Positions 58,275-59,883 of a DNA stretch of 64,000 nucleotides are shown in pieces. Source of the DNA: Escherichia phage DCP548. The position numbers were made by a program, and so were the translations under genes. The stretch lies in the sequence record PQ671645.1. The stretch is one strand, 5' to 3'. Positions within the stretch are counted from its first letter, which is position 1. Each line of letters starts with the position of its first letter. The notes under the pieces were generated by a model, which made no database searches, was not told the DNA's origin, and saw only the letters and a program-made list of their open reading frames with translations.

Positions 58275-58320
58275 GTTGCTTTTCCTAAGTTAATTAACTT
58301 ATCTATTTATTATTATGCAA

Positions 58321-58348
58321 AAAAAGCCCCAACCTTTCGGAAGGGGCT
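58321..58348 (-). terminator. rho-independent terminator
   Basis: Minus-strand AGCCCCUUCC-GAAA-GGUUGGGGCU then UUUUU; closes the 58349..58659 non-coding region. Confidence 0.65.
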
Positions 58349-58659
58349 ATGCCTTGCGGCAACCTTGTCGGGGTTCCACCTGCTAAGGCAAGTGTTTGTA
58401 CGAAACGCCGGGATTCGAACCCGGTTATTAAGCAGTTGACGCTACTCAATATTTTTAAAAGGCCATATCTCGACCATATCCGAACGTTCCGTCAAAAACG
58501 CTACTCGGCTTACGGCAAAGATATTTCCTCGAATCGATAATTCTGTGCGCCGTTTCTGCTGTGATGTAAGGGGATATTAACAAATCGTAAAGATTTATTA
58601 AGACCAGTCCTTACGCAGGGAACATCAGTCCGACGACTTACCGGTAGCGACCCGGCTTC
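58349..58659 (-). ncRNA. candidate structured RNA region with a tRNA-like T-arm and acceptor
   Basis: 310 bp with no ORF, bracketed by a CDS stop and a terminator; minus strand contains CCGGG-TTCGAAT-CCCGG plus a 7-bp acceptor pairing (plus-strand 58400..58491), but I could not fold a canonical D arm or anticodon arm. Confidence 0.3.
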
Positions 58660-59052
58660 TTATTTTGGCATATCATCAATTTGCTCTCGACGCCGACGCC
58701 ATAGATTAATCGCTTCATAAACACATTCTGCGTTTGGTATATGACGGCAATAATATAATGATTCGCGTTTCTGGAACCGATGTTGTAATGGAATTTCGTT
58801 TAAAAGGTCTTTACGATCAAAGTATTCAAAACTAGTTAACCCAGAACGATTTTTAAGGAACTTCCAATGGCCAAATTCATTTTGGAAATAAACGTAATCA
58901 GCGTGTTGATATAACGAATTAATCAACCGGTCGGAAATAACTGTATCCTGTTCATTAAAATAAAACGTTAAATCATGAACTACCAGATAAATATTACCTT
59001 TCATATTTTCCTCACTTAAAGTTGGTCGAGACAGAAGGATTCTAACCTTCAC
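58660..59052 (-). CDS. hypothetical protein
   Basis: 130-aa minus ORF next to the homing-endonuclease-like gene. Confidence 0.4.
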   Translation of the reverse strand: MKVRILLSRPTLSEENMKGNIYLVVHDLTFYFNEQDTVISDRLINSLYQHADYVYFQNEFGHWKFLKNRSGLTSFEYFDRKDLLNEIPLQHRFQKRESLYYCRHIPNAECVYEAINLWRRRREQIDDMPK

Positions 59053-59083
59053 CTTTAACCTTAGAATGATTATATGCTATCCA

Positions 59084-59752
59084 TTACACTATAGAAGCAA
59101 TTAAATTGTTTACTTTATCATCTTTATAAACTTCAGAATAGTGGAGTTCATAAATTTCCCAGCCCAGGGATTTTATAATATCATGTCTTTCCTGATAATA
59201 TGGGGCCAGAATTTTCTTGTTATGATCGGAGTAATGTTGGTTACCGTTAACTTCAATAATTATTTTCTTATCCATCAAAGCAATGTCACAGGAATATGCT
59301 CTATTTTTAACAGGTTGATATTCCTCAACAAATTGTATATTTGCTTCTATTAATTTATTTTTCAAAAATTCGCACGGAACAGATTTGAATTTTGAATTCT
59401 TTTTCCAAGGGTGTTTATCTGGATTTTCCTTTAACCAGGTCTTCCGGGCTGCTGATATCTTTTGTTTGGATTCAGACGAATGCTTTCGTCCTGTGCCTGC
59501 AGCAGACAATTTTTCTCTTGTTTCTTCAGAAACAACTAAAGAAATGCCCTTCTTTTTGGCAACCATGAATTGATTTAAATTACCAGATTCTTTGCGTGCT
59601 TTATTCATAGCAGCGACTGCATTTTTAGAACCCTCTTTATAAGAGGCGAGTTTTGGATTTTCAGAACACCATCTGGTATGACTTGCCATCCATCCCTTTG
59701 GTTTATCAGAAATATCAAATTCTTTATTGCAGTGTTTGCAGATGCTCATCAA
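59084..59752 (-). CDS. homing-endonuclease-like protein (zinc finger + NUMOD3-like repeats + DUF559/PD-(D/E)xK-like C-terminus)
   Basis: 222 aa; N-terminal CKHC...HTRWC; SEETREKLSAAGTGRK and SESKQKISAARK NUMOD3-like repeats; C-terminal YSCDIALMDKKIIIEVNGNQHY. Confidence 0.5.
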   Translation of the reverse strand: MMSICKHCNKEFDISDKPKGWMASHTRWCSENPKLASYKEGSKNAVAAMNKARKESGNLNQFMVAKKKGISLVVSEETREKLSAAGTGRKHSSESKQKISAARKTWLKENPDKHPWKKNSKFKSVPCEFLKNKLIEANIQFVEEYQPVKNRAYSCDIALMDKKIIIEVNGNQHYSDHNKKILAPYYQERHDIIKSLGWEIYELHYSEVYKDDKVNNLIASIV

Positions 59753-59776: not shown

Positions 59777-59784
59777 TATTTATA
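59777..59784 (-). promoter_or_regulatory. late-promoter-like TATAAATA
   Basis: Exact TATAAATA on minus strand about 25 nt upstream of the homing-endonuclease-like ORF. Confidence 0.35.
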
Positions 59785-59808: not shown

Positions 59809-59883
59809 TGGTGACCCTGGCTGGTTTCGATCCAGCTACCTATCAGTTATGAGCTGACAGCTCTCCCATTGAGCTACAGGGCC
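59809..59883 (-). tRNA. tRNA, anticodon CAU (Met or Ile2), with encoded CCA
   Basis: Hand-folded cloverleaf on minus strand: acceptor GGCCCTG/CAGGGTC, D-arm GCTC-AATGGGA-GAGC, anticodon loop CTCATAA, T-arm GCTGG-ATCGAAA-CCAGC, 3' ACCA. Confidence 0.7.

Follow-up and report, generated by a model that had tools for sequence, protein, structure and literature searches.

The rnaD/rnaC end of a T4-like tRNA operon in Escherichia phage DCP548 and a covariation-supported structure for rnaC

What does a phage encode in 310 bp of DNA that hold no convincing gene, carry a tRNA-like T arm, and lie next to a strong terminator? The question was raised by a first-pass annotation of Escherichia phage DCP548 (PQ671645.1) for positions 58349 to 58659 of the window, that is, of the whole 64,000-nt stretch of DNA that was analyzed. 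Of the three options left standing, the first two were a degenerate and an unusual tRNA, and the third was a small stable RNA such as T4 makes from its tRNA region. The description of the region was correct overall, but its strand needed to be fixed because everything lies on the minus strand. The third option was borne out by a base-for-base alignment with T4 rnaD and rnaC, and it also agrees with the record of ATK47, a close relative, in which the same stretch is annotated as "rnaC, small stable RNA; species 1 RNA." Judged by its sequence, the segment from 58319 to 58663 on the minus strand is orthologous to the last part of the tRNA operon in phage T4 and therefore a feature that is already known. 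The species 1 and species 2 RNAs of T4 have been known since the 1970s.

The 310 bp do not form one element but two RNA genes plus a trailer. The boundaries of the parts were transferred from the T4 annotation through the alignment, so the ends of rnaD and rnaC listed here are putative.

58544-58663, minus strand: rnaD ortholog (T4 species 2 RNA), about 120 nt, 86% identical to T4
58538-58543, minus strand: spacer GAAUUA between rnaD and rnaC, 6 nt, 5 of 6 bases as in T4
58399-58537, minus strand: rnaC ortholog (T4 species 1 RNA), 139 nt, 137 of 139 positions identical to T4 (98.6%)
58349-58398, minus strand: 3' trailer with small hairpins, 50 nt, 92% identical to T4
58319-58348, minus strand: intrinsic terminator, hairpin plus U7, 86.7% identical to T4

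The minus strand of the window and the T4 segment stayed colinear in the alignment, beginning at base 1 of rnaD and reaching the terminator. rnaC aligned without gaps to T4 rnaC (NC_000866, 70908-71046), and rnaD, located immediately upstream of it, was 96.7% identical to its ATK47 counterpart. Over the whole RNA block, identity to T4 was 92.5%, whereas that of the adjacent coding DNA was 68 to 83%; thus, the block is an island of strong conservation. The best BLAST matches were 98.6% identical, 584 of the 807 matching records spanned at least 80% of the query, and the block was present in more than 800 T4-like phage records. This spread, together with the conservation relative to neighboring coding DNA, places the feature far above chance.

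The surroundings agree with this identity. In the T4 reference record, tRNA-Arg is directly followed by rnaD (119 nt) and rnaC (139 nt), with which the tRNA cluster ends. Here, the minus strand carries, in order, tRNA-Met (59809-59883), a tRNA-Arg remnant, rnaD, rnaC, and the terminator. The genome is T4-like and of the Mosigvirus type, and the block is the 3' end of its tRNA operon. The succession of rnaD, spacer, rnaC, trailer, and terminator at the end of the tRNA cluster is shared with T4, as is the strand logic. However, rnaD starts 1 nt after tRNA-Arg in T4, whereas a 114-amino-acid open reading frame (ORF) lies between the two here, and the 3' end of rnaD reads CACAG instead of the CACCA of T4. 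Taken jointly, the identity, anatomy, and biogenesis of the rnaD/rnaC block are claims that we hold with high confidence; this confidence does not extend to our guess at function.

The block was not recognized by existing RNA models. ARAGORN reported neither a tRNA nor a tmRNA in the region, and Rfam 15 returned nothing at gathering thresholds or at E values up to 10, with the tRNA model tested on 58349-58663. The sole weak Rfam match, isrK at 16.5 bits, lay on the wrong strand and was regarded as chance. The first-pass annotation had named the lack of a covariance-model hit as part of what would refute its proposal. This test does not apply, because Rfam 15 holds no family for rnaC or rnaD. 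Instead, a covariance model built from the homologs matched the window copy at 58397-58537 with 163.8 bits. With this custom model, no second copy or paralog was detected in any locus, which also ruled out rnaD as a diverged rnaC. The rnaC 3' motif was phage-specific in that it had no match among one genome each of 185,579 bacterial species, and a scan of metagenomes yielded no new clade. When IMG/VR was scanned with a loose 5'/3' motif, 109 loci were obtained, of which about 20 were real and the others were chance matches on unrelated contigs.

For the structural analysis, 30 distinct rnaC sequences were assembled from annotated records, IMG/VR, and metagenomes. Their sources are T4-like phages of enterobacteria that span some ten genera: Tequatrovirus, Mosigvirus, the VR25 group, Kanagawavirus, Moonvirus, Winklervirus, Karamvirus, Marfavirus, Gelderlandvirus, and unclassified relatives. 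A hand-derived structure was tested on a MAFFT alignment (A3), on the subset of sequences with the T4-type arm (A6), and on a covariance-model alignment (A7). In A7, 92.1% of the cells were in standard pairs, compared with 34 to 47% when the partners were slid by 1 to 3 columns, and 16 pairs changed on both sides. None of 500 shuffles of A7 reached the observed values of paired cells, both-side changes, or covariation score. In addition, the minimum free energy of rnaC was -50.2 kcal/mol, with a z score of -4.55. The secondary structure of rnaC is shared and supported by covariation across the homologs. As modeled, it combines an acceptor and T arm with two elements that take the place of the D and anticodon arms, namely a long irregular arm and a hairpin of 10 bp; an A-rich linker is also present.

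58530-58536, minus strand: 5' strand of the acceptor, CGAUUCG, pairing with 58401-58407 (rnaC nt 2-8 with 131-137)
58527-58529 with 58460-58462, minus strand: predicted 3-bp helix AGG/CCU, invariant, at the entry to the long arm
58465-58524, minus strand: long irregular arm (P2a/P2b/P2c/P3), terminal loop UUUGACGG at 58489-58496
58490-58495, minus strand: long-arm loop sequence UUGACG, proposed to kiss 58436-58441
58426-58451, minus strand: second hairpin P4, 10-bp stem, loop CGUCAA at 58436-58441
58408-58424, minus strand: T arm CCGGG-UUCGAAU-CCCGG, 5-bp stem and 7-nt loop, abutting the acceptor
58401-58407, minus strand: 3' strand of the acceptor, CGUUUCG, followed by U-ACA at 58397-58400

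A 7-bp acceptor had been proposed for this RNA. The acceptor indeed spans seven positions, but these comprise five Watson-Crick pairs and two central U.U mismatches. The five paired positions were always paired, with position 3 changing from A-U to G-C in 19 of the 30 sequences, and the tandem U.U was invariant in all 30. The 3' tail was U-ACA in most members and U-CCA in Marfavirus. The T-loop motif GGTTCGAATCC, which had drawn attention to the region, had a single occurrence in the window (minus strand, 58411-58421), inside a 5-bp stem with a 7-nt loop as described. The T stem covaried (G-C to U-A). The loop itself was canonical in most members but not in CIP9 (UGCAUGC) and Virsaitis27 (UGCAUC), and its only invariant positions were U54 and C56. 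Thus, the classical T-loop contacts cannot be essential. The failure to fold a D arm or an anticodon arm was also well founded, because neither is present in rnaC.

The body of the molecule was equally constrained. In the A6 alignment, 97% of the long-arm cells were paired, with three compensatory pairs and three pairs showing a wobble-compatible change on one side. Among the T4-type members, the outer part of the arm covaried and the inner 46 nt were almost invariant. A second type of long arm had an unrelated sequence and the same terminal hairpin. It was found in KLB31, PEi20, fGh-Ecl01, Melville, Kosakonia 305, NM4.3, Ursula, and the Marfavirus group. All four pairs of the P3 stem were compensatory between the two arm types, and nine of the ten P4 pairs showed compensatory changes. 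Since both arm types occur inside single genera (Kanagawavirus and Moonvirus), a modular exchange of the arm is suggested.

The loops of the long arm and P4 appear to be linked to each other. UUGACG and the CGUCAA of the P4 loop are exact complements, and all 180 cells were complementary across the 30 sequences. In the six Marfavirus-type sequences, the loops read UUGGCG and CGCCAA, an A-U pair having become G-C on both sides. The two loops therefore probably form an intramolecular kissing contact, for which the double change counts as a single evolutionary event in the Marfavirus clade. P4, the kiss, and P3 add up to about 21 bp, and the rest of the long arm amounts to about 17 to 20 bp. On geometric grounds, these lengths would be compatible with two side-by-side stacks closed by the kiss.

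With this fold, rnaC can be compared with known tRNA-like molecules. It shares with canonical tRNA (RF00005) a seven-position acceptor that abuts a 5-bp T stem in the manner of the coaxial acceptor/T helix, a UUCGAAU loop, a location in a tRNA array, and a likely processing by RNase P. Unlike a tRNA, it lacks the D and anticodon arms, is 139 nt long, and has the tandem U.U in its acceptor and an ACA tail at its 3' end. The ends of tmRNA likewise form an acceptor beside a T arm, with a long irregular helix in place of the D and anticodon arms, and in both RNAs the body would be held by non-nested loop-loop pairing, through pseudoknots in tmRNA and through the proposed kiss in rnaC. However, rnaC has no G3.U70, no tag reading frame, and no encoded CCA, and it is less than half the size. 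A tmRNA identity was rejected because position 3:70 was A-U or G-C in 30 of 30 sequences and because ARAGORN reported none. YrlA and viral 3' tRNA-like structures are also non-decoding, partial tRNA mimics that can be handled by tRNA enzymes. In contrast to YrlA, rnaC lacks the Ro-binding stem, and its acceptor is formed by its own termini. The YrlA model (RF02553) gave no match on rnaC, either for the window copy (E ≤ 10) or in four homologous loci (E ≤ 0.1). By sequence, synteny, and structure, rnaC and rnaD belong to the T4 families and are not a tRNA, a tmRNA, or a YrlA-type RNA.

A narrower sample was available for rnaD, consisting of 12 distinct sequences from Tequatrovirus, Mosigvirus, Dhakavirus, and the VR25 group. 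RNAalifold placed 31 pairs on this set, nine of which had compensatory changes, and the minimum free energy was -34.9 kcal/mol (z score, -2.4). The predicted rnaD fold is conserved and consists of a 5' hairpin, GCCGG-GUCGCUA-CCGGU (58640-58656, minus strand), and a long imperfect hairpin that is closed by GUCGUCG and CGGCG-C-AC and has a variable apex. The closing pair of the shared hairpin CCGG-GUCGCUA-CCGG covaried. The 5' 50 nt and the 3' 30 nt, the latter ending in GGCGCAC(C/A), were invariant in the 12 sequences. A pairing between rnaD and rnaC was also considered, since CGCUA/UAGCG and GAAACG/CGUUUC are complementary. It is unsupported because the complementarity extends over merely 5 to 6 nt and because the rnaC motifs are kept in genera without rnaD.

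The strong terminator reported at the end of the region is real, but it lies just outside the start given for the region. The hairpin GCCCCUUCC-GAAA-GGUUGGGGC, followed by U7, occupies 58319-58348 on the minus strand, about 50 nt past rnaC. It was missed by a simple consensus scanner because of two internal U.U mismatches in its stem. Folding of the trailer with the hairpin (58312-58400) gave -32.9 kcal/mol and a z score of -3.2. A terminator is annotated at the equivalent site in the PhAPEC2 record, and the trailer was conserved in T4, Mosigvirus, and Dhakavirus.

The two RNAs do not always occur together. In the Dhakavirus IME540, the trailer and terminator directly follow rnaD and rnaC is absent; thus, rnaC is dispensable in some lineages. 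Conversely, rnaC was found without a recognizable rnaD in Kanagawavirus, Moonvirus, Karamvirus, Winklervirus, Gelderlandvirus, and Marfavirus. These two patterns demonstrate that the RNAs are separable. The IME540 locus (L007:1436-1620) also contains two tandem rnaD-like copies, a short one ending in GGCGCACCA and a full-length one ending in GGCGCACCG.

The position of rnaC in the tRNA operon bears on its processing. In all genera, rnaC lies inside a tRNA array, about 5 nt after the CCA end of a tRNA or after rnaD, and the junction spacers before it read AAUUA, AAUAA, or AACAA. Another tRNA begins about 5 nt downstream of rnaC in several genera, and in Karamvirus, Moonvirus, Winklervirus, and Gelderlandvirus, rnaC sits mid-array instead of at the 3' end. 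In T4, the tRNA cluster is transcribed into a single primary RNA of about 1.75 kb, from which eight tRNAs as well as species I and II are derived and which terminates past species I (PMC2330249). RNAC and RNAD of T4 are late RNAs, as validated by northern blotting (PMC9697503). In the phage studied here, the host tRNA-maturation machinery would cut rnaD and rnaC from a polycistronic transcript, and the products would accumulate as stable late RNAs, as they do in T4. RNase P would generate the 5' end of rnaC by cutting on the 5' side of its minihelix, as suggested by the constant spacing of about 5 nt from a CCA end within a tRNA array and by the acceptor/T minihelix itself, and 3' exonucleases would trim the RNA to about 2 nt beyond the stem. 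Older work reportedly described a dimeric rnaD-rnaC precursor that is cut by RNase P, and species I is said to be cleaved by RNase III in vitro. The ACA tail that most members carry in place of CCA makes aminoacylation unlikely and RNase P recognition less than ideal.

Several other features of this part of the operon were observed. An exact T4 late-promoter motif, TATAAATA, is present at 59777-59784 on the minus strand, immediately past tRNA-Met and ahead of the endonuclease ORF. Late transcripts that extend to rnaD and rnaC could start from it, and the five occurrences of the motif in the window are no more than expected by chance. A 222-amino-acid ORF (59084-59752, minus strand) lies between tRNA-Met and the tRNA-Arg remnant. 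Its NUMOD3 motif and DUF559/Vsr-like nuclease domain make it homing-endonuclease-like. It occupies the same slot as T4 segB and belongs to a different nuclease family, and its closest database versions (10 records) are only about 80% identical. The tRNA-Arg(UCU) at 59023-59098 on the minus strand looks defective, with an Rfam match to model positions 6-65 only and no call by ARAGORN. Its 3' acceptor strand, UGUCUCG-ACCA, is Mosigvirus-like and its D arm is T4-like. Only two of seven positions of its 5' acceptor, GCUUCUA, pair (one Watson-Crick pair and one G.U wobble), and the endonuclease-like ORF upstream extends into this 5' part with its last codons. The 114-amino-acid ORF (58660-59004, minus strand) between this remnant and rnaD resembles RB69 ORF150c and has no Pfam match. 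Its stop codon (58660-58662) runs into the start of rnaD, and its final codons, AUG CCA AAA UAA, keep a CCA-AAA junction like that of T4 tRNA-Arg/rnaD.

Unannotated structured elements were also seen directly upstream of rnaC in other phages. In the Erwinia phage Virsaitis27 (L025:647-718), the slot of rnaD in T4 holds a degenerate tRNA that was missed by both ARAGORN and the record and that scores 36 bits with Rfam. In the Marfavirus Klebsiella phage MY02 (L023, about 736-799), the corresponding element is about 60 nt long and has the form GGGGUGG...CCCACCC.

What, then, do these RNAs do? The biological roles of rnaC and rnaD "are unknown" according to PMC3014915 (2010), the products are "RNAs of yet unknown functions" in PMC9697503 (2022), and the function is likewise called unknown in PMC12685909 (2025); only statements of this kind were found in the literature on rnaC/rnaD function. 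However, when a T4-like phage was evolved on ECOR34, a semi-permissive host, all of its lines acquired a single rnaD SNP (PMC12685909).

The strong constraint on rnaC, its loss in IME540, its location in an accessory region, and the lack of any bacterial match to its motif suggest an accessory, host-dependent role. As a tentative reading, held at well below even odds, rnaC may imitate a tRNA without decoding and thereby occupy or divert a factor, of the host or of the phage, that recognizes the acceptor/T-arm shape. Its function would then be accessory and host dependent, possibly in counter-defense, and rnaD would be either a co-expressed partner or a separate accessory RNA. It is also conceivable, although doubtful, that rnaC is a dedicated tRNA-shape decoy, a compact four-way-junction RNA that shows an acceptor/T face with a tandem U.U to a host factor. 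The kissing-loop body would lock such a decoy in a form that cannot be decoded, and the target could be a processing or repair enzyme or a tRNA-directed defense nuclease.

Alternatively, rnaC and rnaD could be cis-acting modules of the tRNA operon with no function in trans, serving as processing punctuation and as 3' protection of the upstream tRNAs and accumulating only through their compactness. This would explain why they always occur in or at the end of tRNA arrays with tRNA-type junctions on both sides, and why the trailer and terminator are conserved with them. On laboratory hosts, T4 remains viable when its tRNA region is deleted, which also fits. However, both loops and the 46 nt that form the inner long arm hardly vary across genera with diverged proteins, which exceeds the need of a spacer; the mid-array position of rnaC in the four genera named above does not suit a 3' end module; and the convergent adaptive rnaD SNP during host adaptation (PMC12685909) points elsewhere. 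On balance, we consider the cis-acting explanation unlikely.

It is still less probable that the RNAs are base-pairing regulators whose loops, UUUGACGG, CGUCAA, and GUCGCUA, would pair with mRNAs of the host or the phage. The loop sequences do not vary, and the RNAs have been called "small regulatory RNAs," without support, in PMC9697503. Nevertheless, each of the two rnaC loops is the complement of the other and they vary in concert, which argues for an intramolecular contact rather than for mRNA targeting.

The two remaining explanations can be dismissed with near certainty. A degenerate or unusual tRNA that still decodes would account for the acceptor-like stem, the canonical T arm, and the position in a tRNA cluster, but ARAGORN was silent, the Rfam tRNA model gave no match at E values up to 10, and the 139-nt RNA, with its tandem U.U and its ACA instead of CCA, has a covariation-supported fold with no cloverleaf, anticodon stem-loop, or anticodon; both tRNA options of the first-pass annotation are hence abandoned. 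Protein coding, as implied by many GenBank "hypothetical protein" annotations beneath the match, finds only mechanical ORFs of 42 to 63 amino acids to point to, in line with the earlier remark that no convincing ORF is present, and it is contradicted by 1- to 2-nt, non-triplet indels and whole-arm swaps between homologs, by substitutions that track base pairing, and by T4 biochemistry that defines rnaC and rnaD as RNAs (T4 annotation; PMC9697503).

The same annotations were observed in many T4-like genome records, in which two to four "hypothetical protein" genes lie over rnaC and rnaD. The RNAs are labeled in only a few records, namely T4, RB68, RB10, RB59, ATK47, and ATK48. Most phage records are blank or carry hypothetical ORFs at this region because no Rfam family exists.

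The block described here is not a discovery; it encodes the classic species 1 and species 2 RNAs of T4. What is added is a covariation-backed structure of rnaC with a probable kissing contact, an invariant tandem U.U, and two arm types, as well as the absence of any Rfam family for rnaC or rnaD. The function of these RNAs has been an open question for about 50 years, and the fold offers concrete mutants with which to address it: the kissing loops, for which a natural compensatory variant exists, the invariant tandem U.U of the acceptor, and the two interchangeable types of long arm. The block is the most conserved DNA in a fast-evolving accessory region, which is consistent with a function under selection in natural hosts. 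If rnaC is indeed a tRNA-shape decoy, the two RNAs would represent an undescribed family of structured RNAs with no Rfam entry, and they would be RNA-based determinants of host range or counter-defense in most enterobacterial T4-like phages.
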